Of a stretch of 64,000 nt of DNA, positions 14,301 through 64,000 are shown piece after piece. The stretch is from Perna viridis (taxonomy: Eukaryota), in NCBI GenBank assembly GCA_037379345.1, contig CM074513.1:46851195-46915194 (forward strand), written 5' to 3'. The first letter of the stretch is position 1. Every line of letters begins with the position of its first letter. Below the pieces are notes generated by a model. The model was not told where the DNA came from. It searched no databases and saw only the letters and a program-made list of their open reading frames with translations. Position numbers and translations under genes: made by a program.

Positions 14301-15992
14301 GACTGATTATTATATACCCCGTACTTTTTTCACGGGGATACAATAATTGTGAATATAAGATCAGATTCTTAAACCTTACTATGATAAATACATGAACCAA
14401 TCTCTTTTGTATTTAACTAAGTTCAATAATATTTTGCTACGTGCAGACCTGTTAGGACATATATTTTTATTGCGTTTAAAGAGATGACGTCTAATACTTG
14501 CAAAAACCAACTTATTTGATGCTAAAAGGAGCCGGAAGAATGATTGTATTGCCAGGTCGAAATTTACTATTTTCACATTAAGTCCTTAGAATAGTGGACC
14601 ATTCATAGAACTTCCTTGTTTTAAGCAATTTAGTAATCTAAGTACTTGTTTTGTTTTGTGTGTAGACTTTTAAAGTAGTTTGAAAGTATAAATCTTCTAT
14701 AAGGACACTTCATAAAAGTATTAAAATGATTTCAAAGTGCAATACTAGATATTTTTTATAAGATACAACTATACATGTATAATATAAGACACGAACAAAA
14801 TGAAACTACCAGAATATTCATTTATTGCTTCTTTGTTATAGAAACCAGGAAATCTCCGAAGAAAAAAGTAGCTATTGTTTCTACTGAAGAAAACGATAAA
14901 CACAGGAAAGTTGTAACTTCCTTTGCATCTTTCCTACAAACGCATTGTCAGTGTGACATAGAATACTTTCATTGGGCATTAGGAAAAGACAAATTTCGGT
15001 GGATTGCTCAAACTATAGATCAAGCCGATTTTCATATATTCGTAGCCTCCGAATCTGCACTTAATCAATATATTTCCTGGAAGCGAAACACCTTACCGTT
15101 TCACACAGATTTATTCATTCCATATCTATCAAAACTTCTGAATAGATTTGATACGAAGGTGAACTATGCATTTATTCGCTTCGAATACGCCCGAGAAGTT
15201 TTAATGCCAGACGAGTTAACTAATTATCAGTTTATGCTAATGGATGATCTGACCCCATTACTTGCTTGTATTCATGAACTCAACCACCATAAAGATAACT
15301 TAAAGGAAAAGGGTCTCCCTAGCGTCTACGATGTTTCAAAAACAAGTGCTGGTCGCAACCTTATTGCTGATATAAACTACGCAGCAAAGGACTATAAATC
15401 CTTACAATCTCGGATGGATTCAGGGTACACAAGCCGTACTGAATTTAGTTCAATTGACGATAAAGAATGGCGAGACCAACAAAAATATATTATAAATGAA
15501 ATTGTAAAGCCACCATCAGATTCGCCAGTAAATATTCAGGGTAGGTTTCTGTTGGATGAAGATTCTAAAAGTTTGATGCCCGGTCGCACAAGTAGGGTTA
15601 CAGAGAGTGTGTCAATTGCACCTGCAATTACTATAGCGGAGGGTGGAGATGACTGGCACAAAAGACCCCCTGTCGATACACAAATAGTACAACATCGGCC
15701 TTTACCAAATCAAATAGGGTCTTACCTTCAGGGTGTAAATCAAATAGGGTCTTACCTTCAGGGTGTAAATCAAAATCACAATAATCAAGATATCTCCGAC
15801 CTGAAACATGTGTATGACAGTCAAAGCAGACGAGATGACTCATTTTTTACTCCCCCTCTGTCTGATGGCAATGACTCTGACGAGGACATTTCAACTCAGT
15901 ACCAATTACAAATGATCGACAATATTAATCGAGCTTATTTGAAACAAAAAGATTCGGATTCCGACGACGCTGTTAGTGGCTATAGCGTGTAA
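2272..15992 (+). CDS. IL17R: Interleukin-17 receptor-like gene (FN3-like ectodomain, single TM, cytoplasmic SEFIR). Spliced CDS: 2272-2311, 4966-5136, 7177-7283, 8302-8446, 10401-10606, 11736-11783, 12143-12257, 12649-12852, 13145-13267, 14842-15992; 5' end incomplete
   Basis: Ten exons bounded by AG/GT (the last ends at the stop codon) with matching phases; the sum is 2310 nt = 769 codons + stop with no internal stop. TM VLPSVLGVLSFFLICFVVIGCY followed by KFNKER. SEFIR box1-like KKVAIVSTEENDKHRKVVTSFASFLQTHCQCDI, then W...IDQADFHIFVAS and DLFIP. Confidence 0.88.
4966..5136 (+). CDS. IL-17R-like exon (CNLTVLKAS...PGRPTDLVL...PGFLVSIKPPRT)
   Basis: Acceptor cccgtttttag, donor gtactg; phase 1 to 1; overlaps ORF 4980-5168. 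Confidence 0.8.
5490..6900 (+). mobile_element. Decayed CR1/L2-type LINE fragments in an IL-17R intron
   Basis: Frameshifted LINE ORF2-like peptides (PKTYWK; LYLSYIR; EAARIVT; C-terminal CRC...EDVDHYLFHCPLY). Confidence 0.7.
7177..7283 (+). CDS. IL-17R-like exon (DFRFVKGFQLNFHDIPYNTEKRCVVVIFDNGTLKT)
   Basis: Poly-T acceptor ttttgtag, donor gtacat; phase 1 to 0; the GF...C spacing resembles an IL-17R ectodomain beta-strand. Confidence 0.78.
7481..7630 (-). mobile_element. tRNA(Leu/Ser)-derived SINE-like head; an inverted partial copy lies at 7830-7931 (+)
   Basis: Minus strand reads tggccgagtggtctagg (A box) ... gctcgagtccc (B box; gttcgagtccc in the second copy). 7481-7582 is the near-exact reverse complement of 7830-7931. 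Confidence 0.65.
8302..8446 (+). CDS. IL-17R-like exon (SNISVTFKIYPLPQMQQNYNFTSFGLPTP...EQW)
   Basis: Acceptor ttttatttag, donor gtgagt; phase 0 to 1. Confidence 0.8.
8545..8620. repeat. 76-bp near-perfect hairpin (mini-MITE-like)
   Basis: Paired arms catcctccca/tgggaggatg and ggttttgagtcca/tggactcaaaacc. Confidence 0.85.
9634..10367 (+). mobile_element. Non-autonomous Helentron/HINE (pearl-like) element
   Basis: 5' aactagaggc...gctcacatg and 3' gacgacggcggac...caggtgagcagaaaa subterminal inverted motif, with an internal duplicated block (tgcgaaaaactgctgt). Confidence 0.6.
10401..10606 (+). CDS. IL-17R-like exon (EGSSSTSRWRTTISY...FWFVKAPDSMNITSYIVTIS...INK)
   Basis: Acceptor gtactttcag, donor gtgagt; phase 1 to 0; FN3-like W...F..AP....Y.V pattern. 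Confidence 0.85.
11358..11495. repeat. 69-bp tandem duplication (2 copies) in an intron
   Basis: attcacgcatcgtgcaaggga...ccctgtggttgacagctacatc begins at 11358 and again at 11427. Confidence 0.9.
11736..11783 (+). CDS. IL-17R-like exon (TEYKFLNLNPGRYRVG)
   Basis: Acceptor ttgcag, donor gtaagt; phase 0 to 0; FN3-type F.NL.PG.Y.V motif. Confidence 0.85.
12143..12257 (+). CDS. IL-17R-like exon (VQSFDDKAGLPDLCKCKNKNGACSSCLKTVTGIVVMPD)
   Basis: Acceptor ctactttcag, donor gtaagt; phase 0 to 1; CxC...CxxC cluster. Confidence 0.85.
12649..12852 (+). CDS. IL-17R-like exon: S/T-rich stalk plus transmembrane helix
   Basis: Acceptor caatag, donor gtaagt; phase 1 to 1; ~22-aa hydrophobic run followed by basic residues. 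Confidence 0.85.
13145..13267 (+). CDS. IL-17R-like juxtamembrane cytoplasmic exon (IHGMFDKRPKEPQNNFK...PTLP)
   Basis: Acceptor ccatttgacag, donor gtaagt; phase 1 to 1. Confidence 0.8.
13460..14342 (+). mobile_element. Helentron/HINE-like element with an internal ~140-bp tandem array
   Basis: Repeated ttgaccttgaggtc...atgaatgta.gcgacacatcg.ctcatggtgata...ccatgtgcca units, then an (ACAG)n microsatellite and a terminal hairpin ccccgt...acgggg. Confidence 0.75.
14842..15992 (+). CDS. IL17R: IL-17R-like terminal exon: SEFIR domain plus acidic disordered tail
   Basis: Lies in ORF 14775-15992; acceptor ctttgttatag ends at 14841; SEFIR motifs present; stop taa at 15990-15992. Confidence 0.9.
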
Positions 15993-40665: not shown

Positions 40666-41202
40666 TTTCATCTGTGGCAACATCCCTTCGGCTCCTGCGT
40701 ATGGAGTGTTCATATCACAACTCATACGTTATGCCAGAGCTTGCCGAAGTTACGCAGACTTTTTGTATCGCGCTAGAATTCTAACAAATAGGCTTCTGGA
40801 ACAGGGCTATGTTGCTACAAGATTGAAGTCATCACTACAGAGGTTTGATGATCTTCATCATGAACTCGTTTATCGTTACGTTGTATGCATATGTACCATG
40901 CAAACTGATTTGTTCAATGGGTCATAGTTTTCCTTTCCTCTTTTGTCTACCCCGGACTTTTTATGAGCAACTCGGCGGGTGTTTCTAGAAAAGCAGAGGA
41001 CGCTTACCCTACCGGTGCACCTGGTCCATGCTCTCAGTTTTTAGTGGAGTCCGAGTTGTTCTTTTGCTTTTGTTACTTTGTATGTATAATTTTAGTTACT
41101 TTATGTTCTTTGTTGTGTATGTCTGTTTTCCATGTCTGGTGTTTGTCCCTGGGTTCCATTCTTTTGATTACCGCTATAACATTGATTCCCTTGATTACTC
41201 TT
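40666..41202 (+). mobile_element. 5'-truncated Naiad-type PLE (RT C-terminus plus 3' tail)
   Basis: FICGNIPSAPAYGVFISQLIRYARAC...DLFNGS; ends gattactctt. Confidence 0.92.
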
Positions 41203-42602
41203 CCATTATCGCAACGGTTCGTCACAGACGATGAACCGGACGCACAGGAAGTAGAATCATAGAAAGTTTGTACTGACCGCTTAAAAGCAAAAAACCAGGT
41301 TAATGACACAATATTGATATTCAAAAGATACGATAGAATTTGGTTACTTTTGGTACAAGAACACAATTAATTCCCATTGGTTTTCGTTCGAATTTTGGTG
41401 GTAGGTACCTTCGGCAATTTTTCATATTTTCACTGGAAACTTATTTGCTGAAGTTTTGCCTCTAATTGGTAGTAAATAGGTCAAAATTACATGGGATTTT
41501 TTTTATTAATCAATTCTGACTGAAAGTTGTGATTTGGTTCAGTGGAAGAAGGTTAAAATTTAGGACTTTTAACTCCGTTCACTTGTCATGTTGACCCCAT
41601 CTCCGGGTCATATGTATTAGTTTCAGACAATGATGGTAAAATTGTCTACAATTTATATATAAAATCATGTTTGTACATATCTTTAGGCCAGAGAAGTTTT
41701 ATTCAGATTTTTTCAATCTGTTAAAATGTGTATACTGAAATGTACTTGAAAATTAATTGTGGACTCATGCCTTCTAATCTGTGGATTGAGAGATACATCA
41801 AACAGACAACAAATAATGGTAATGACCCACTTTCAGGTCATATAATCTGCCTAATACAACATCAGGCGACACAAAGGATGAAATGGAAACAAAAAAATAC
41901 ACATTTGCACAATAAGCATACTCGTCTAAATGCCTTTTATTGACAAAGAACATCTAACCACCTCGTAGATTACGTTTATCATTATACGAAAAAATGCTTT
42001 CGTAAAAGGAGATAATGTCAAAAAGCTAATAAAATAAATCAAACTTTAAAGCATCAGAAAACCTAATTGGATAAAACATTGATTGTTTAATTTGCTCGAC
42101 TTATTCTAAGCATAACTTTCAATTATGTTCAATATAAAGGGAACATGTGAGATGAGGAAGGCCCAACTCGTTGAGGCAAAACTAAAATGTCCATTGCGTT
42201 GTGACAGATTATTGTTAATTAAACTTAACACAATAGACCGCCAATTTTTGGTGAAATGTGAACTTATAATTCCAAAAATCTTCATAATCAAAGACACTTT
42301 GGTAGTACTATCCCTACTCAATTATTTTGAGAAATGCTTACAAACAGTGCAAATTATTCAAATGTTTAGAACACTTATTGTAGTGGCACTACATCTACAG
42401 GAAGGCAGATGGCTGCTTTTTATTTTAATATTAATCTGCAAATGGCCAAGAGAGCACAGAATTTAATTTAACTGCATGTCTAGACTGACAACTATAGTAT
42501 TTCAAATGTCAATATCCTTATCTTTGTAAAAACGTTTTCAAATCTAAAGCGTATACAGAACTCAAGGGTTTATATATAAACTACCTCGAGAGTGTAAACT
42601 GA

Positions 42603-43125
42603 AATTAAGGGAACTAAGATTCGAGCGGAAACCAAAAGAATATGTTCTAGACAGGGAAAATAGACATACAGTACAAAGAACATAAGTAACAAAAATAAAA
42701 GACGTTAAAAGAGACAAAAGTAAATAAGCAACCCGGACTACACTAAAACTGGTAGTATGGACCAGGTGCACTGGTAGGGTAAGCGTCATCGGTATTTATA
42801 GAAGCAACCGCCGATTTGCTAATAAAACGTCAATTCCTGGGTATACGAATGAGGACGGAAAAACATAACACGTTCAACAAATCGGTTTTCATGGTGCTAA
42901 TGGGTACACCATAACGGTCCATGAGTTTTTTGTACTTATGGCTTTTAAATTGTAGCAACATTAACCTGATCAAGAAACCTACTAGTAAGAAGTTTAACAC
43001 GGTACAAAAAGTCCGCGTAGTTTCGGCAAATCTTGGCATAACGTAGGAGTTGTGATATGAAAACTCCATAAGCAGGCGCTGGAAGGATTTTTTCACATAT
43101 GAAAGAAAAATTGACAAAATGGAAT
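42603..43125 (-). mobile_element. Older 5'-truncated Naiad-type PLE copy
   Basis: VNFSFICEKILPAPAYGVFISQLLRYAKIC plus a diverged tail. Confidence 0.85.
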
Positions 43126-43411
43126 CTTAAGTGATCCATTTGTTAAGATCACCGCTTTAAGTTTGAAGGTCGTTGTGGTAACCAGATAGACCATTATGAT
43201 ATATCAGATTCAAATATAACATACGATCTCGGATTTTACCGTGCATGACATTCAGTGGACAGTACGACGAATGTCCAGAATGAAGCGGGAACGACTCGCT
43301 TTTCCGGAGTATCGGAGTTCACACATAATGTTTTATTGAGTATTGGCCTCTGATTTTGTTTGTGCAACTATAAGTTCTGTTGTGTTGTTAGTATATTTGT
43401 CAGTTTTCATA

Positions 43412-45829: not shown

Positions 45830-46235
45830 ACGCTTACCCTACCGGTGCACATGGTCCATGCTCCCAGTTTTTAGTGGAGTCCGAGTTTTTCATTTTTTTT
45901 GTTACTTTATATGTATTATTTTAGTTACTTTATGTTCTTTGTTGTGATTGGTTTCAATGTCTGGTCTTTGTCTCTGGATTTCATTCTTTTGATTTCGGCT
46001 AGAATCTTGGTTCCCTTGATTACTCTTTCTAGAAAAGCAAAGGACGCTTACCATACCGGTGCACCTGGCCCATGCTCCCAGTTTTTAGTGGAGTCCGAGT
46101 TGCGTACTATTTGGTTATTTCATGTTCTTCGTTGTTGTGTGTGTGTGTGTCTGTTTTCCATGTCTTGTCAACACATTCTTTTACATTACATACTTTTGAT
46201 TTCCGCTAGAATCTTGGTTCCGTTGATTACTCTTT
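45830..46235 (+). mobile_element. Two head-to-tail Naiad 3' tails
   Basis: acgcttaccctaccggtgcac...gattactct occurs twice, with the junction near 46027. Confidence 0.85.
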
Positions 46236-46379: not shown

Positions 46380-47625
46380 TACTAAATAAATAAACCCAAT
46401 CGTATATACTGCAAATTTCGATATTTGGTATACGTGTTTCTAGCAGTAACCTCTGATCAGCAGCATTAGAATTAAATGTACACTAGGAAAACTTAAACCA
46501 AAAAATAATTGTACACAAGAAGTACTCCAAATATCGGAATAGGAAACACTTCGATACAAGGAAAGAAGCTTCAGTGCTTTAGGTATTTTGAAATTTGTAA
46601 TACTATAATAAGTTTTATAAATCTTATAAATAAAATGTTTTATAATTCGGGGTCAGACATGTCTGACTACTGGGTTAGTGCATACCATCGGAGACCATAA
46701 TATGTACTGTAACGCCATTAGTGGCATCGACACAATAGTTATTAAATACAAAAAAAACACCAATCATACGTAAGCCAAATATAAATGTACTGTACACGTG
46801 TTTCTATGAGTGACCTCGCGCAAGCATGTTTTTAGTTTATTTAAATTCTACTCCAAAAAATAACTTTTATAAATCTTGCATCTTGTGCCTATGGGTTCAC
46901 TTGTACATGAAAGGAACAATGTTCCTAATTCGTCCCATGCACTGTTTTCTTTTTTTAGAATATAAGCTTTTTCTCACTAATTCAAAGTCCGAACCACTTA
47001 CCTGATCAACAGAACTAGAACCAAATATACGCAAGGAAGATCAAAATAACAAAAAATCCAGAAACAAATTGTATACAAGAAGTACTCAAAAACTCAAAAT
47101 TTCAAAATTGGAATTCAAACAAATTACTGAGAGATTGTACCATGTCCAATAAAAAGAATGAAGCTTCAGTGTTTTGAGTATTTTGAATTTGTAATACTTC
47201 AATTATATCAAATAAAATATGATATAAAAAATTACCAATCATATTATGCTTAAAAATGTAATATGCTGTACACGTGATTCAAGGAGTAAACCCTGATCAG
47301 CAGCACTAGAATCTTGTGTATATTAGTGGGTGGCCTTGGGCTGACGTTTCCATCCCGGTGGGGTAGTTGTCTCCTTGACATATACACCATACCTATTCTC
47401 GTTCTATAGTAAGATCTTAAACAAAATAAAAACAATATTGCACACAAGAAGTATTCTAATCAAGTCGGTAAGTGAATACCCTTGTGGTGGACCTTATGTC
47501 CACCACATCGACCTAATAGTTATTGAATAAAAAATTGGCAATGGTATATACTGCAAATTTCAATATGCTGTACACGTGTTTCAAAGAGTAACTTCTCATC
47601 AGCAGCGCTAGGATCAAATGTATAG
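46380..47625 (-). repeat. Degenerate tandem array (~200-360 bp spacing) of hammerhead-containing units
   Basis: Recurring blocks tgtacacgtgtttc...tgatcagcagca.tag, tg.acacaagaagta and gaagcttcagtg.ttt..gtattttgaa; cores at 46426-46465, 46790-46826, 47001-47020 (half), 47264-47305 and 47566-47607. Confidence 0.75.
47566..47607 (-). ncRNA. Minimal type I hammerhead ribozyme
   Basis: Minus strand GCUG-CUGAUGA-GAAG uuacu CUUU-GAAA-C acgu G-UA^-CAGC: complete catalytic core, stem I GCUG/CAGC, 4-bp stem II, palindromic stem III (ACACGUGU); predicted cleavage between 47571 and 47570. Confidence 0.85.
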
Positions 47626-47627
47626 GA

Positions 47628-50600
47628 AAGAGTAATCGAGGGAATCAAGGTTATAGCGGTAATCAATAGAATGTAATCCAGTAATCCTGAGACAAAGACC
47701 AGACATGGAAAACAGACATATACAACAAAGAACATAAAGTAACTAAAATCGTACATACAAAGTAACAAAAGCAAATGAGCAACTCGTACTCCACTAAAAA
47801 CTGGGAGAATGGACCAGGTGCACCGGTAGAGTAAGCGTCCTCTGTTTTTCTAGAAACACCCGCCGAGTTGCTCATAAAAAAGTCACGTCCAGGGTAGACA
47901 AATGAGGAAAGGAAATCTATGACCCGTTGAATAAATCAGATTTCATGGTGCAGATGGACACACCATAACGATCCATGAGTTCATGATGACGACCATAAAA
48001 CTTCTGTAGTAATGAATTCAATCTTGTAGCAACATAACACTGTTCCAGAAGCCTATTTGTTAGAGTTCTAGCGTGATACAAAAAATCTGCGTAGTTTCGG
48101 CAAGCCCTGGCATAATGTAGGAGTTGTGATATGAATACTCCATACGCAGGTGCTGAAGGAATGTTGCCACAGATGAAAGGAAAGTTGACAATTTTGAATG
48201 AAAAGTCATCACGTTTGTCGTAAAGTTTGGTCAATAGTTTTCCTTTACCATCGATTTCTAAGTGTAGGTCAAGATATGAGGCTTTCTTCACAGTGTCTGT
48301 AGTATCCTTTATCTCAAGTTCTTTGGGGGTAGATGCGATGTATCAAATTCCCGAAATTAGGATTGTTTAAAGATAATATGTCATCTATATAGCGGAAACT
48401 GAGATTAAATGATCTAGCCAAACGCTATTCTTTCTTTCGGATCAGATCAGCTATAAAGTCAGCCTCATAACAGTGAAGGAATAGGTCAGCAAGTAAAGAA
48501 GCACATTTCAAAATCACGTCCACCACACTGGACAAATATGTCGTCGATAAAAAATTTCAGCATTTCGTAAACACCTTCCTCTGTATAGTCGGAAGATGAT
48601 TTGGAATTATTTTTTTTTTAAAGTATGAGGAATCTCTACCAAGAACTATATATTTGTATCTTGGTGTACCATCTTTTTTGGAAAAACAATGATGTATATT
48701 GTTTTTAAGTCGGGATTGTAACTAAGTATGGGGAATAGAAGTATACAGTGTTGAAAAATCATAGGTTTTATTGCTATTATATTCAGATAATAGTCTTGAA
48801 CTGATTGTCTCCAACAGATCTTTCGAATTTTTCAGGATCCATATTGAATTAATACCACTACGGGAGTAACAAGTGTTGTGGTTGGACTGCAGACCCTCTT
48901 TGACAGTTGTGAGTATAGAAGTTAAAAGTTTGGAAAGAGGTTTGGTGGTAGATTTTGCAGATCCAGCTATGAAACCTTGTTTGTATGGATTTTTGTGGAG
49001 TTTAGGAATCCAGTACATAGACGATAAATCACAACCATCGTCCTTGGTAGAGAGACCAAAAGAGGATAACACAGATTTATGGTTTTCCACAATTTCTTCT
49101 TTGGAGAGTGTGGTAGCAGTATACGTCTTATCACTGCTTTTTTCTACGTCTACCTATGATAATAATGTTTGTTTGTTGGGGTTTAACGCCCGAGCAGTAA
49201 TATTCAGCTATATTCAGGCGATGAACATGAAGTGGATAATAAAATGAAAATGAAATGATGATGGAATGAAAAATGGGATGGGACAGAAGGATAATGGGGT
49301 CGAGAAATTTTGATTGCCACTGGAGATAGGGAGAGGTGGGTAGGGTCGGGCAATTTAGTCTCCTGTGGCGGAGCCCTATGGTTCCTTCTCCGGGAGAATA
49401 CCACTGCAGGTTTTTTTTTCACGTGCGAGGAACGTGGCATCTTTTCCAACACGGTGCACCACTATGGTTTGCGGTCAGGTTTTCTGTATTATAGCCTGAC
49501 AACCCCAACATGTAACACGCCAGGGGTACCCCATTCCACCACCTGGGGCATACATCCCAGTTGCCCTGTGGGCAGAGCGCCTAGCCCCCGACTAAGTTTC
49601 TGAGCACTTTTTAGCCGCCTTTTACGACAAGCTTAGCGTTGCTGCAGGCCTATTCTTTTAACATTCGGACCTGCACAGAGCCCTGTGATAATAAGCATTG
49701 GATGTAAAACATTTTGCAGACAAAACAATGTTGTTTTGGGCTTTGTCTGCTGGAATGACAATATATTTGTCATGTATAGTAGACAATGTTTTTGCTACAT
49801 CGGGGTCTCTGAAAACCGATGTGGGCTTGGCACTCATTGACCTACTTAAAACTTTCATTCGTTTCAAAATTACTCATTGGCACTCACTGACCTACTTAAA
49901 ACTTTCATTCGTTTCAAAATTAAAGACCTCACGACCTTTAACCACTCTGACAGAGAATCAATATCTTCTTGTTCTCGTTTTATCTATTTTCTTGCATAGT
50001 CCTCGACGGCATCCATAAGAACTTTAAATTTATAATTCCAATTTATGGAGCGTGGTTCACGGTACTTGGGATCTTTAGAAATGATATTACGCAGAGATTC
50101 GTTTTCGATGATGGTTAAATCTCCCGTAACGACGTGACCAGAAGGACCATATTTGAATGGAGAGTTTTTGCAAGTACAGGCAGGTGGTTTAGCCTTTAAG
50201 TCCTCAATCTCGAGGTTCTGCAATAGCCTTTTATAATTAAACATTTTGAATGTAATGGGTGAAGTATAGGAATATGAAATAATTGGTATGGATTTGTCTT
50301 TGAAATATGGGGGAATTTTGTTGCTAACATTTTTGTGATGGAGGATGTTAGCCAAATTAATTGCATCTATACCTTTGTTGACAAACGGTAGTGGAAGAAA
50401 TGATCGTTTTTCTCCATCTTTACTTTTCACACAAACTGGTTTAAAGAGTCTGTGGAAACTAATATCCAAAATGATGGCAACAAGTCTGCATAATGATGAG
50501 GTAGGGTCAGAAACAGGAGTGTCAAGACTTGTTTTGTAAAGGGAGTGTAGTAGAGTGAGAGGTATAGAATAAAGTTTGGTTGTAATGTGATGAAGTCCAA

Positions 50601-51110
50601 GAGGTTTTTGTAAGAAAGGAAGGAGACCATTTATAGAGACATCATGTAACTTAGGTGACGTATAGTGGCGATGGCCATGACTCCTTTCCCGTCTTGGATT
50701 TTTGTCAAATAAATTCATCACATTTATGCTATTGTTATATTGGCTTGAAAGGTTTCCTATACTTTTGATGTTGTCATTGCATCCGTAAGGTATTGCAGTA
50801 CCTATTCTGCGTATCCAGTACTCCTCTCTTTCCCTACGATAGTTTTTTTTATTAGAACGGGACTTTTCGTAGGATGGTAATTTTTTTCCTAAAATACGAA
50901 CTTTCATAGAGAGGATTGAATGATCTCGTATATTAAAGTGTTGATAAACTGTCGGGAATTTGGTGGTGTTAATTCCCGTACGATGACTGCACATTCTTTT
51001 GTTTAATCGTTTTTTCGTTTCTCCGACATATACTAAACCACATAATTTAGCTCGAAGTGTAAGTATGGACGCAGACTGGTATAACCCAAAGAGCAGATTT
51101 GAACATACAT
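47628..51110 (-). mobile_element. Near-full-length, inactivated Penelope-like retroelement with N-terminal GIY-YIG endonuclease (Naiad-type)
   Basis: ORF 49984-51156: CGLVYVGET..RL..RM.SH...HF...DH...RE.YWI....PYGCN (GIY-YIG). Downstream PLE RT motifs: PADKAQNN, YWIPKLHK, YDFSTLYTSIPH, FRYIDD, YLDL, LYDKRDDF, NIPSAPAYGVFISQL. Stops and frameshifts throughout. Confidence 0.93.
49166..49681 (-). mobile_element. Full-length ~516-bp SINE-like retroposon inserted in the PLE RT, with a 13-bp TSD
   Basis: TSD cctatgataataa (49153-49165) / cctgtgataataa (49682-49694); (AAAC)n 3' tail; GC-rich body; truncated copies at 57764 and 63415. Confidence 0.88.
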
Positions 51111-52358
51111 ACGTTTTGTCCTGAGTGTGTTTGCATTGTCTAGAAAACTCCTCCATTTATTGTTATCAATAATTGAACTATACACATGTTGATAAATATC
51201 CATTAACATATGTTACTAAATATCTACTGATACATGTACATGTATCAATAAATGGAATAAACTCCACAATGGCTTACCATAACCATAAGACAAGTCATAT
51301 ACATATTACAATGCTTCTTTCTTGAAGGTGCATGTGTTGAACTTGCCATTTCACTTTATGTGGGTTAGTTTGGTAAATTTGTACCTCTAATTCTGGACTC
51401 TCAGTTTTTTTAGATTAACAGAAACCAACAGTGCGGTATCGGTCAGTTACATGGATGGCTCTATTTTTAAAATGGTTGGGGCCATGACTCCAAATTAAAT
51501 AGGAGCCTTCCTTTAGAAGTTATAATATAAATTTTATTAAAAAAAATTCATAACAATTCATCAACCATAACTAAGTCATCGCACGAAAATCAAGTGAATA
51601 TGGACGACGACGACACGGACATCCCTGCCAGCACTATGCCAATATACATGTACGATCGCATTTTTTTACGGTGACACTATTATATTAAATATATACATAT
51701 ATATCGCCAGATTCCGGGTTTGAACATGCTCCATTTCCAATTCCCTAAAAAGCCTGCCAATTACTCTTCCTTAGGATCAAATTAGTAGTGTGTGATTTGC
51801 TCAGAATCTACATCTATAAGGTCTTTGTTTTTACATTTGTCCTAGTTAAAACAGTTATCTATCAAAAGAGAATAAAACTGCATAATGGAAAAATTTAGTT
51901 AAGAAAAGTTACAGTCATGTACTCAACAGAAAACATTCGAAATTCTTATGAAACAAAATTAAAATACCGATATACGAAGGACTTTAAGGCTAAATCCATC
52001 CATACTGGCTCATAGCTAGCACTTCAAAATCAATATTTCAACTAAATCTTGTATCAAACAACTTTATCAACTTCTAGATAGTTATATACATTTGTATCCC
52101 GAAAAATGTTTCCTTGGACAAAAACTGTATACTACAGTACTTGTTTTGCAGCTGTATACAATATATCTAGAGGCACTGTCAGTATTATTTGGTTTCAGAA
52201 CCAACATAACCTGTATGTAAATTCAGCACTTCAAAACACTGTAATTAACTTTTCTTTAGAATCCCTATTTCATTAAATCCTGTAAATCTTCTCCACAATT
52301 TAACAAAACTTAGTTATTTTCAAGTATACAATATTTAAGTATGAAGGATAATAAATCA

Positions 52359-54950
52359 TATTTTTATGTACATGTACAAAAAATACTTTATTGGCACGAA
52401 GTCATCAACAGAAAATGATTAATTCAAAAATCATATAAAGAGTTGTCAGTACATGCTGTCTGACATGTACATATATAGCAAAACTAAAAATCGTTGGAGC
52501 TCCTTGGGAATGTACTTACATGTACACTGTACTTTAAAGTGTATATAACCTCTATGTGTATAATGTAGAGTCCCCGAAACTTCACGTTACAGTAATGGGC
52601 AGCTAATGGAACTACCTCAACTTAGCAGATTACTAAATGCCATGAGGTTTGCAACAAAATGTTAAAAAGGTCATATGCATGATATCAGCGTACGTGTGTT
52701 CCTGTCAAGAATTTTCTTTTGTCCTCCTCCACCTTACCTAAAACTCTAAATCTTCCACTGAAGATTCAGCAAATGCTGTAGGCATTACAGCGTGCAGATC
52801 ACAAATTGGATCACTAGGTCACGAATCGACATCAAATCACACGTGATGCTTTTAATGAATTGAATGAATGAACGTGGTCACATGACAACTAATTTCCCCC
52901 GAATACACCATGACCCACATTCACGGGTATGACTATGCCCGAGACTGTGTTAACGCTTTGATGCTTTACACCGTCCGTGAGGGAACCTAGTGATAGCCAA
53001 AGACTTTAGGAAACTCCTCAGTCCGTCATGGATTACAAATACCACATAGAAGTGCAAACTGGGGCTAACAGTATTAAGTATATATGTTAGCACGAAAACG
53101 ACCAAGTATAGGAACAGTCAGCTGATGGTCAGCGTCACTCATATCGTGCAATGGATTGGCTAACAGTGAGTTACGAAAGATTTTTAGGGATTTTAGTGGT
53201 TATTATCTAAAAAGACAATCAAATTATCTACTCGAAGCCACATTATGCTAGCTTTATAAAGCACGAGATGGAGGGTTTATCGGATATACGAAAAGTGCTA
53301 TCATTTTCAACTTTATTGTTATAGTGTTATTTAATTATATTTTTATGTACATATACAAACTTTTATTTATTAGCATGAAGTCATAAACAAAAAATGGTTT
53401 AATTAAAATTCATATTAAGAGTTGTCAGTACATGCAGTCTGACATGTACATATAGAGCAAAACTAAAAATTGCTGGAGCTCCTCGGGAATGTACTTACAT
53501 GTACACTGTACTTTTACGTGTACATAATGTCGATATGTATAATGTAGCGTCCCCGAAACTTCATGTTACATTAATGGGCAGCTAATTGGACTACCCCAAC
53601 GTAACAGATTTACCTCAATGCCATGTTTTTCCAACAAAATAGCTTGCCATACAATCCTAGCACTGCTGGAGTAATAAATAGCCCATCCTATTAGGCCTAA
53701 AAATATGTTATGTTTCCTGTCACCCTATCGACCCTCCTTCAGACCCCTACCCCGAGGTTTCCTGTCACCCTGTCGACCCTGATTCATACTTCCTACCCAA
53801 AAGTTTTTATTTGTTATTTTGAAATATATATATATATATATAAGTCGGCCCGATTGTCTTTCAGAAAAAAAAAGTAGAAAATAAAGCCATAGATGTTATT
53901 CTATCCTAGATGGAAACACGAAGAGAAAATTGTTTATTTATATTTAGATTCGATTGTAAACACACATGCCATGAGTGTGCTCGTGGTAATCCCTTTTGGG
54001 ATTCGGCACTTGAATTAAATTTTTTGTGTTTTGACCACCACTGTCAAAAAAATATATATTTCAAGCGCCGAATCCCAAAAGGGATTAGGCTGTGGACTAA
54101 GTCTATTAGTTTTTGCATAATTGGTTCATTGTATTCTAAGTTTGGTGTCACTATGACTTATTCCATTTTAAAAATTTTAAATAAAAATAAATCCCTTCCC
54201 AACGACCCGACAAAATTTTAGAAGGTGATCGGAAACATAACATTATTTTTTTGGCCTTGGAGATTTCTAATCAATTGACTGGCGTGCACCATTAAGTTGA
54301 CCTACCTTTCTGTCTTATATGCAGTTGGAAGTGTTGATTTTATCCCCAAATAAAGCGGGGTCAAAGATTCAGCAAATGCTATAGGCTGTATAATACACAG
54401 CATACAGATTACAGATTGGATCACTAGGTCACAGATCGACATTAAATCACGTGATAATGCATTTAATGAAATTAATGAATGAACGTGGTCACATGACAAC
54501 TAATTTCCCCGAATACACCATGACCCACATTCATGACTATGTTGTATGACCATGCCCGGGGACTGGGTAAACGCTTCAATGCTTTTTACTGTCCGTGAGA
54601 GACCCAAATGATAGCTAAGGGCGTTAAAAAACCCCTCTGCCCGTCAAGTATTACAAATACCATATACGAGTGCAATCTGGTCTAATAGTATTGAGTATAT
54701 ATGTTAGCACGATAACGAAAATTAAACAAAGTATAGGAACAGTCAGCTGATGGTCGGCGTCACTCATATCGTGAAAATGATTGGCTAATACTGTGTTACG
54801 AAAGACTTTTGGGGATTTTAGTGGTTTATTTCCACAAAGACAGTCAAATTATCTGCTCAAAGCAACGATGGCCTAGCTTTATAATGCACGAAATGAAGGG
54901 TGTAACGGGTATACATAAAGTGCTATCGTTTTCAATTTACAGTGTTATTT
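52359..54950. repeat. Diverged ~1-kb tandem duplication (copy 1 52359-53335; copy 2 53338-54950, containing a MITE)
   Basis: Colinear blocks gagttgtcagtacatgc.gtctgacatgtacat, aagattcagcaaatgct, gaacgtggtcacatgacaactaatttcccc, aagtataggaacagtcagctgatggtc. Confidence 0.92.
53693..54257. mobile_element. MITE with ~30-bp TIRs and a nested 28-bp inverted repeat (53987-54014 / 54060-54087)
   Basis: aggcctaaaaatatgttatgtttcctgtcacc versus ggtgatcggaaacataacattatttttttggcct; absent from duplicate copy 1. Confidence 0.8.
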
Positions 54951-55802
54951 AACTACTATAATCTAAACTGTACATTCAGTCTATGACATTCCTATGTTAT
55001 ATAAACCAATACAACAAATCTAGCGATAATTTTACATTTATGGTAACAGATATTAACTACAAATTTAATATGCATTTGTTTTTAGATCTCTAGATCTATA
55101 ATAGATGCTATGGGCGTTTTATTTCTAAAAATAGAATTTATAAACAAATCATTACTTAGAAATGGTTAAGGTGATGGTTGCATTTATGTGTTATACATGA
55201 CCCTGGGTGAAAAACAGTACATTTGATGTGATGTTATGTTGTTTTGTACTGACAAATAACCTATACAGTTAATATGTCTGAGTTACGTATGAAGCGCTTT
55301 ATTTGGAGGCATATTTCGTATGATAGATGGGAAGGTTTTCATTTAATTGGACCGGCAAATCCACTAAGTGTTTCTTCCCTACAAAAAGTCATTAAAACGC
55401 TTATATCTTTTGATCGATAAGTGTTAGGTTTGTCTATTTAAGCATATCACGACGAAAAACATAAATATAATCAGCTAAAACTGCTGCTTAATTATGCTAT
55501 TTTTCAAATGTGGTTTCTTTAAGCTATGAAACGGCCCACACGGTAAAATGCCTTGACGCGTTTGGGTATGTAAATCAACAGTCTTTACAAAGTTGGTTGC
55601 TTGTTGATCGCCATTCAGATTTTGTTTAGTTTAAGTTTTAATTGTTATAAAAAAAACTGTAAGCATTTCATGGCCATCTTTTTACTTTCATGATAAGTTG
55701 CTTATCGCTATATCATAATAACGTAATGCTCACAAAGATATGATCATGATGAGATCTATTAGTTGTCAAATTGTTTTTGGTAAATCTGTTGAACCTTTTA
55801 AT

Positions 55803-57300: not shown

Positions 57301-57763
57301 GGTTTATACGAAAAGACCAAAGGCGATTGGCCATATATTTGGCCCTCATATTTTGGAATTTTTCATCATTGATGAATCATTGCCAAATTTTATAAAATAC
57401 CACATTTATAATTTTAGAAAGTAAAATTTCAAAAAATCTTTACGTTAGTACGTCAGATTGTGTCCTAAAATGGACAGAATGTTCATTTTTTCGTGACTTT
57501 AGGAGATATATGCCAATAGATAATTAAAAGTTTACTATCTCCGCAAGCATGGACCAATTCTGACTTTGTAAGCAATTCTAACAGCATTTAAAATTTCTCC
57601 ATGTATAACATTTATTTAATCCACGACTGTCAATAATTACGAAAAAACATAGTTCAGCATACATGCGATCCCCGTTGACTGGTCTGTATTCCAACTGAAA
57701 ACCGACAAAAACTTACAGTATGGTTCTGCCTAAAAACGTGAGAGGCGGCGATCATCATATTTT

Positions 57764-57912
57764 ATGTTTGTTTGTTTGTTTGTTGGGGTTTAACGTCCGA
57801 GCAGCAATATTTCAGCTATGTTCAGACAATGAACATGAAATGGATGATAAAATGAACATGAAATGAAAAAAAAAAGGATGGGTCACAAGGATAATAGGGT
57901 CGACAAATTTAT
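57764..57912 (-). mobile_element. 3' fragment of the SINE at 49166
   Basis: (tgtt)n ggggtttaacg.ccgagcagcaatatttcagctat...atgaacatgaaatggatgataaaatg. Confidence 0.85.
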
Positions 57913-63090: not shown

Positions 63091-63414
63091 AGCCATGTAT
63101 GTGTTTGTTTGTTTATTCAGATTAGACTTTCTCTTGTGTTACATACAGTTATTGTCTTGAAATATGGGACTAAAAATTTGAATTAAGAGTTTTCTTACAC
63201 CTTACTCAATTACATACTAAAATAACGGACTGAAAAAAAAGTTGGCTGGCAAACTTCCTTCTTGTTTATTGATTATTACGGGCCATTTCCAACAATAAGT
63301 ATTTAATGTAAATAATGTTCACCCACTTGATAGATATGAAAAGAAAACAAAGCAAACAAACCATGATAAATGCCAATTTTTGTGAACTAAAAGTACGGGT
63401 TGTAAACAAAGCAA

Positions 63415-63712
63415 TGATTGATTGATTGATTGTTGTGGTTTAACGCCCTAGCAGCAATATTTCAGCTATATTCGGGCGATGAACATGAAATGGATGATAA
63501 AATTAACATGAAATGATGATAAAATGAAAAATGGGATGGGGCACAAGGATAATGGGGTCGAGAAATTTAATTTTGATTTCCATTGGAAATAGGCAGAAGT
63601 GGGTAGGGTCGGATAATTTAGCCTCCTGTGGCGGAGCCCAATGGTTCCTACTCAGGGAGAATACCACAGAAGGATTCTAGTTTACGTGCAAGGGACGTTG
63701 TATCTTTCCCAA
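63415..63712 (-). mobile_element. 5'-truncated copy of the SINE at 49166, with an (AATC)n tail
   Basis: Colinear with 49170-49450 (ggtttaacgccc...gcctcctgtggcggagccc.atggttcct...gggagaataccac). Confidence 0.88.
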
Positions 63713-64000
63713 CAATCTTTGAGATTTTAGATTTGGCTACAAGCAGTATAGATAACAATGTGGATGCAGGGGACACCGATATGTACCCGTTATCTGTATA
63801 ATATATTCTTTTGATTGCAACTGCTATGGTTATGTATGCCTCAGTAGAGGTTGCCTCAACAGGACGAAAGCAGTTGATATTTGTGCTCTGACAATTGATA
63901 TGAACTATAGTTTGGACAAGGTGACTTTGGTTAACAGGTTTTTTTTCCATGTGATTCATCTTCTGAATGTTCACCAACAATACTCCAAAGGATTTAAATG

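Follow-up and report, generated by a model that had tools for sequence, protein, structure and literature searches.

A decayed hammerhead array at the edge of a Naiad element

The window, a stretch of 64,000 nucleotides from Perna viridis (assembly GCA_037379345.1, contig CM074513.1, positions 46,851,195 to 46,915,194), carries on its minus strand, at 46382-47625, four decayed head-to-tail copies of a hammerhead repeat of ~380 bp (Table 1). Five pieces of this array were matched by a profile built from other loci (E values of 2e-57, 8.5e-35, 4.6e-27, 5.9e-22, and 5.8e-16 in the 64-kb window), so that homology at the level of the unit is far above chance. Repeat finding recovered an 84-nt family with four members, at 46397, 46761, 47237, and 47539. 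Their spacings (302, 476, and 364) depart from the ~380-bp unit because of deletions and two later insertions. Along the ribozyme strand, the order is copy A (unit positions 1-166, a deletion, and 337-378), an 89-bp insertion, copy B (6-95), a unit body (221-380), copy C, and copy E (to 102). Copies B and E thus stop at unit positions 95 and 102, the usual 3' end of the repeat family. The array contains no open reading frame (ORF) of 150 amino acids; GC content is 33% in the array and 35-37% in young units. Array pieces are 80-87% identical to the majority sequence of the older subfamily described below, whose members show a median of 89%.

An earlier note on this DNA had placed four copies near 46426, 46790, 47001, and 47264, beside a further one at the edge of the Penelope-like element (PLE). 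Repeats do lie at these places in a single orientation, and the three flanking blocks that it quoted are common to the units, but the ribozyme strand is the minus strand and the array holds four ribozymes in all rather than one plus four, since an insert has divided a single ribozyme into the two pieces at ~47001 and ~46790. On the ribozyme strand, the insert follows UUGAUCA-G, and the unit resumes at stem II. The sole other genomic match of that insert lies on the same contig (C3:45,077,025; L206:1501-1688), with 96% identity and unrelated flanks. The match ends exactly at both breakpoints, and 2 to 3 bases are common to each junction; templated, unique DNA with short junction identity is as found after double-strand-break repair. 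We also sought a segmental duplicate with an empty pre-Naiad site, and the second genomic match proved to be the donor of the insert only.

Elsewhere in the window, a fifth, lone, and heavily decayed ribozyme piece of the same family lies at 1940-2011 on the plus strand (E value = 2e-7). The window also contains an open frame with a SEFIR domain (14730-15992, plus strand, E value = 1e-13), an open frame with a weak MGAT4-like match (27865-28908, minus strand, E value = 0.011), and, within the repeated region 52315-54955, a long hairpin formed by an inverted repeat (53984-54095), with weak matches to microRNA models far below their gathering scores.

Table 1. Coordinates of the array, its neighbor, and the ribozyme-only arrays
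Feature	Position	Strand	Remarks
Copy A, ribozyme region	47520..47625	-	Intact type I hammerhead; core CUGAUGA 47602-47596, GAAA 47582-47579
Copy A, predicted cleavage site	after GUA at 47571	-	Within the copy A ribozyme region
Copy A, remainder	47413..47519	-	Unit ~105-166, ~170-bp deletion, unit ~337-378 (last piece weak, E value 0.94)
Unrelated short interspersed repeat, inserted (89 bp)	47324..47412	.	16 BLAST hits in other fetched loci
Copy B, ribozyme	47227..47323	-	Core CUGAUCA (G8C, 47300-47294); GAAU in place of GAAA
Unit body before copy C	47031..47206	-	Unit 221 to ~380; profile match 221-372, E value 4.6e-27
Copy C, ribozyme, 5' half	47002..47030	-	Core UUGAUCA (47009-47003)
Templated insertion in copy C ribozyme (~185 bp), between core and stem II	46816..47003	.	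96% identical to one site 1.8 Mb away
Copy C, continued	46484..46817	-	Stem II, GAAA, stem III, and nearly whole body (unit 31-375), E value 2e-57
Copy E, ribozyme	46382..46483	-	Core CUGAUCA (46460-46454); stems I and II broken
Broken Naiad-type Penelope-like element	47626..52320	-	ORF start 51156; 5' end approximate; outside the array
45-bp ribozyme-only array loci	L127, L222, L220, L221, L223, L224, L225, L226		Counts over the eight loci 34, 3, 4, 13, 10, 17, 4, 3 (first unit partial in two)

The ribozyme motif and base sharing among the local copies

A scan of both strands of the window found a single complete motif with core, GAAA, cleavage site, and stem I, on the minus strand at 47602. 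The array motif is not a minimal hammerhead but a canonical type I hammerhead, with a stem I of 5 to 6 bp, a stem II of 4 bp, and a short palindromic stem III, and it fits the canonical description given in PMC4209133. Copy A forms 5/6 pairs in stem I, 4/4 in stem II, and 2/2 in stem III, with core, GAAA, and site all present; young copies also carry the core, GAAA, GUA, and stems I to III. Searches with the Rfam hammerhead models gave no match in the window at E ≤ 1, nor in three loci of the family at E ≤ 10, and a metagenome scan for the hammerhead core pattern gave 0 matches.

An intact core is found only in copy A, the one that abuts the Naiad element; copies B, C, and E all have C in place of G at position 8 (G8C). 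Three CUGAUCA cores had been reported before, which is right for position 8 in all three, but the core of copy C reads UUGAUCA on the ribozyme strand and CUGAUCA on the opposite strand only. No two adjacent hammerheads are intact, and with its single intact ribozyme the array cannot release a monomer and is predicted to be dead.

Among exact 17-base matches to the core context genome-wide, 664 have G at position 8, 100 have A or T, and 14 have C (backward controls, 0). Because G8C is this rare (14/778), its presence in three local copies indicates that the change was copied and not repeated; at the genome-wide rate of 1.8%, the probability that G8C arose separately in three of four copies is near 2e-5, a value that would rise for old copies yet stay small. 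The other 13 G8C copies are single and scattered, and C is the rarest base at position 8, ruling out a spreading G8C subfamily. Amplification after inactivation, as the earlier note had suggested, thus applies locally and goes no further. For the rare bases common to copies A, B, and E, the family copies scoring as high were 0/162, 1/159, and 1/150, and the 3' half of copy C was unremarkable by this score (8/107 to 118/252 family copies as high). The sharing is mosaic, with 18G in copies A, B, and C and G8C in copies B, C, and E. Since these shared bases conflict, no single tree or single template accounts for the array, and either exchange between neighbors or a mixed source is needed. In an anole PLE, G8C is reported to have abolished cleavage and not insertion, reverse transcription starting internally on uncleaved RNA (PMC11167929).

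A dispersed family of ~380-bp repeats

A DNA search of the genome itself returned 703 candidates on many contigs, of which 40 were scored, and the family comprises at least 778 copies when counted as exact 17-base matches. The unit measures ~380 bp, with 379-381 bp between two ribozymes at L002, L066, and other loci. Copies are dispersed over all large contigs and are mostly single. In 86 unselected loci (90 fetched in genome order minus 4 duplicates), ribozyme matches on the same strand within 1.5 kb numbered one in 72 loci, two in 12, three in 1, and thirty-four in 1. The unit does occur in tandem apart from PLE ORFs, as dimers at other loci; long, homogeneous runs of complete units were not seen.

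We then considered 114 loci, made up of 85 unselected loci and the 29 of top similarity. The 3' end of the repeat block fell at unit position 90-119 in 96 of them, and the 5' ends were spread. This usual 3' end is ~45-50 nt past the cleavage site (unit position 55), and a fixed 3' end with 5' truncation of the copies is as expected of Penelope-type reverse transcription. Upstream of the ribozyme, the 114 loci show further unit sequence, wrapping round to the next ribozyme. Their flanks share no coding sequence except chance neighbors, Naiad included, and neither these loci nor 30 loci of one Neptune-type family placed the unit downstream of an ORF with reverse transcriptase (RT) and GIY-YIG domains.

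The family shows several features of a non-LTR retrozyme: a type I hammerhead, head-to-tail units within the ~150-450-bp range with one ribozyme each, many dispersed copies, non-coding sequence without LTR organization, and a GC content under 50%. These results support the earlier suggestion of a retrozyme-like bivalve repeat. The majority sequences of an older and a younger subfamily are alike throughout unit positions 16-71 (core and stems); their first 105 positions contain 7 differences, two of which served to define the groups. No terminal inverted repeats were noticed in the unit.

Single-exon open frames lie ~2 kb upstream of retrozyme copies at L143:810-2891 and L157:1572-2837; from their motifs, we take the former to resemble a multicopper oxidase and the latter a G protein-coupled receptor.

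Ribozyme-only 45-bp arrays

One unselected locus (L127:3477-5007, C1:47.448 Mb) contains 34 copies of a 45-bp unit that consists of the ribozyme only. The junction of this array occurs 63 times genome-wide, at 8 loci on 5 contigs (two loci are mutual duplicates, leaving seven independent). All of these arrays sit inside otherwise normal copies and run into normal downstream unit sequence. An extra base downstream is present in all eight and in 0/86 unselected core matches, which points to one source lineage, yet the units within an array share locus-specific changes (some inactivating) that speak for local expansion of the DNA. The junction was present in contigs of a DNA-like run and absent from three RNA or RNA-like runs. 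Tandem repetition also affects other internal segments of the unit, namely, a ~69-bp piece in three repeats downstream of the array at L226 and a 27-bp piece repeated several times at L254:2635-2717, and local slippage in the family therefore reaches beyond the ribozyme.

The 45-bp arrays are explained most plainly by one duplication event, after which uncleaved RNA was retrotransposed and slippage took place. Because each 45-mer has a self-closing stem I, 45-nt RNAs would be released from intact arrays, and their ligation could yield circles that consist of the ribozyme only. A sublineage that shrank to its ribozyme, by way of such RNAs and circles or through telomerase-like repeated copying of a bounded RNA segment by a Penelope-type RT, is conceivable but doubtful. 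If real, 45-nt circles would fall below the 51 bp reported as the smallest unit of vertebrate retrozymes (10.64898/2026.07.22.740005).

Folding and RNA reads

The minimum-energy fold of copy A alone is not the hammerhead (z = +1.9). Folded as circles, the monomers of two young copies were 56-59% paired and did not outperform shuffled sequences (z = +2.1 and −0.6). A young unit was compared with roughly a fifth of a cDNA RNA-seq run from 2026 (10.35 million reads). Matching reads numbered 1243 and lay on both strands; 88% of them continued into unrelated sequence, and their ends did not pile up. The matching reads look like fragments within other transcripts. There was no sign of a discrete unit RNA in this run, whose library type may miss circles and says little about them.

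The Naiad neighbor

The element upstream of the array, on the same strand, has an N-terminal GIY-YIG-like motif, CxC, DKA, and broken RT pieces, and it is interrupted at ~49166-49676 and ~51182-51753. A Pfam search of three of its ORF pieces found no family. Its layout is that of the Naiads described in PMC8557442, a source that reports them as without canonical hammerheads. The interruption at 49166-49676, in the RT region, is an abundant unrelated repeat that also occurs at 57760-57910 and 63414-63714. The window has four further 5'-truncated Naiad 3' ends within 7 kb (40666-41203, 42603-43136, 45830-46029, and 46026-46235), two of them in tandem. The Naiad 3' untranslated region contains a conserved GC-rich block with a long inverted-repeat frame (~47770-47885, minus strand; also 40982-41058 and 46026-46102, plus strand), in which GAAA shortly precedes a CAGAGGA word.

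The Naiad 3' end at 47626 lies before the ribozyme, and its last base is shared by other Naiad ends in the window. The join to the array passes through a short TCTT(T)C look-alike. Among the first 30 Naiad ends on C1, 15 join at TC or TT, and the junction in the window therefore needs no special cause; the unit followed 0/30 of these ends. Naiads are abundant in this genome: the exact 16-base Naiad end occurs 24,540 times, and Naiad sequence covers ~5% of 40 control stretches taken at fixed steps.

Naiad ends were not enriched near the unit. In the 86 unselected loci, 5 Naiad 3' ends were seen within 500 bp of the ribozyme (3 on the same strand, 2 on the opposite strand; 5.6 expected) and 13 within 1 kb (11.2 expected); the exact 16-mer gave 5 (5.8 expected). 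In 85 unselected loci, Naiad abutted the repeat block in 6 cases, counting both sides and strands (8.8 expected), and the arrangement of the window, with a Naiad directly upstream on the same strand, was found at 0/85 (2.2 expected). At the 29 loci of top similarity, same-strand upstream Naiads numbered 2 (0.8 expected) and abutting Naiads of any kind 5 (3.2 expected). These comparisons exclude an enrichment of roughly two-fold or more, not a smaller one. Naiad fragments lie inside the ribozyme at L028 and L053.

The Naiad copy is 95% identical to its own majority sequence, so that by this comparison it is less decayed than the array and is likely the younger of the two. The earlier note had offered two readings, an array next to its helper element and a hotspot in which PLE 3' tails integrate repeatedly. 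Given the 0/30 Naiad ends followed by the unit, the lack of enrichment, and the probably younger Naiad, neither is supported. The hammerhead beside the Naiad belongs to another element and makes no exception to the lack of canonical hammerheads in Naiads.

A Neptune-type element as a candidate helper

A second PLE, at L146:7570-9999 on the minus strand, has an RT (PF00078) and a C-terminal zinc-finger/GIY-YIG-like region. This hammerhead-bearing element is presumably of Neptune type, judging from its motifs. It gave 150 scored matches, many of them 95% or more identical. It has a long open RT/endonuclease frame (843 amino acids at L229), and a minimal hammerhead follows the stop codon in 26 of 30 loci (L229-L258); the motif occurs in 165 exact copies. 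The sequence common to these loci usually ends ~50-55 nt past the hammerhead site, often followed by (TA)n. This 3' geometry is that of the retrozyme, and by analogy it fits the internal initiation reported for the anole PLE (PMC11167929).

The Neptune and retrozyme tails are no more alike than shuffles (1214/2000), so that sequence does not identify the helper, and their pairing is an inference. The retrozyme profile matched 1/30 Neptune loci, L254, at a junction with an old copy; we read this as a young insertion into an old copy and not as proof of a partnership. A hammerhead-bearing PLE with a C-terminal endonuclease, of which the young Neptune-type element is an example present in this genome, is a more likely helper than Naiad.

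Origin of the array

It is highly probable that the array is what decay has left of four copies of a dispersed ~380-bp hammerhead repeat, likely a non-LTR retrozyme, at whose edge the Naiad likely inserted later by chance. Intact tandem copies would have been transcribed and would have cut themselves at GUA, yielding monomers of ~380 nt and circles, as in Mytilus. A Penelope-like RT may then have started ~45-50 nt downstream of the cleavage site and copied toward the 5' side; such copying would produce copies that are for the most part short and 5'-truncated, and now and then a copy longer than a unit. The window array probably arose through one such insertion of more than a unit or because one source was duplicated locally. 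In copy E the end coincides with what would be the usual start site, and so it does in copy B, as if copying had restarted. Exchange between neighbors and decay would have followed.

Other explanations were weighed against this one. The unit could be the pseudo-LTR (pLTR) of an extinct or unsampled PLE, with single copies as 5'-truncated 3' ends and arrays as partial tandems. The fixed 3' end and 5' truncation do mirror the geometry of Neptune-type tails, most copies are single, and a preprint derives vertebrate retrozymes from PLE pLTRs (10.64898/2026.07.22.740005). Against this, the 114 loci show more unit upstream of the ribozyme and no common coding flank besides Naiad, the one Neptune match is a junction with an old copy, and the ribozyme is canonical, not minimal. 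We therefore think a pLTR identity improbable; an ancient origin from a pLTR is compatible with the retrozyme remnant that we favor. That Naiad is the helper, either laid down together with the unit by a template jump or with tails that target units, is a still poorer prospect, even though the abutment in the window is exact and on the same strand, similar joins occur at L008, L026, L028, and L053, no retrozyme remnant lies upstream on the far side of the Naiad, and Naiads are by far the commonest PLE seen. The missing enrichment, the frequent TC/TT joins, and the difference in decay all speak against it, as does the comparison of Naiad and retrozyme tails, whose likeness is not above that of shuffles (1553/2000).

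It is also possible to see the unit as a DNA-level satellite or MITE-like repeat, its hammerhead match being a non-functional relic and RNA playing no part. The absence of an Rfam match, the weak folding, and the lack of a discrete RNA agree with this, and the local copies were clearly exchanged or duplicated as DNA. However, the ends are polarized relative to the cleavage site, single copies are spread over all large contigs, the ribozyme region is identical between subfamilies, and terminal inverted repeats were not noticed, and we find such an origin scarcely credible.

Relation to known elements and significance

The family resembles the non-LTR retrozyme of Mytilus galloprovincialis (Cervera and de la Pena 2020, PMC7229834) in its type I hammerhead, non-coding sequence, low GC content, and absence of LTR features, a likeness drawn from the published description. 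For that mussel, ~5000 type I hammerheads in repeats of ~350-390 bp, slow self-cleavage, and abundant circles are reported, with thousands of copies and a proposed PLE helper; the folds of the circles are given there as predictions, and the mussel circles are noted to be heterogeneous. Unlike the Mytilus elements, the present copies are mostly single and 5'-truncated, and the window array is decayed. In a limited literature search, neither this family nor 45-bp ribozyme-only arrays turned up for molluscs. The family was earlier called uncatalogued, which within the scope of that search stands for its sequence but not for its kind, mussel retrozymes of such size having been published (PMC7229834).

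Vertebrate non-LTR retrozymes (Li, Clavereau, and Pollet, bioRxiv 10.64898/2026.07.22.740005), for which units of 51-972 bp and kinship with pLTRs are given in a sampling that names no mollusc, likewise occur as monomers, dimers, and short arrays. That preprint defines an active array by two consecutive intact ribozymes, and the window array falls outside this definition; in a further difference, no pLTR homology was found for the present unit. With the hammerhead pLTRs of canonical PLEs (Cervera and de la Pena 2014, PMC4209133; Frangieh et al. 2024, PMC11167929), the family shares a ribozyme near a fixed 3' end, the same geometry as that of an internal RT start downstream of the ribozyme. Those ribozymes are mostly minimal and lie behind an RT/endonuclease ORF, whereas the present one is canonical and without an ORF. 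The neighboring element, for its part, has the layout, the very high copy number, and the lack of a canonical hammerhead of its own that are described for Naiad PLEs (Craig et al. 2021, PMC8557442).

The array locus is a relic that serves as a control: a hammerhead that touches a Naiad need not belong to it, and adjacency to a Naiad is what chance would produce in this genome. At the level of the family, a 3' end fixed at 45-50 nt downstream of the cleavage site lends genomic support to the open idea that Penelope-type enzymes copy animal retrozymes by internal initiation. Moreover, the family observations name a testable helper, the young Neptune-type PLE, and the 45-bp ribozyme-only arrays could test how small a retrozyme-derived circle can be.
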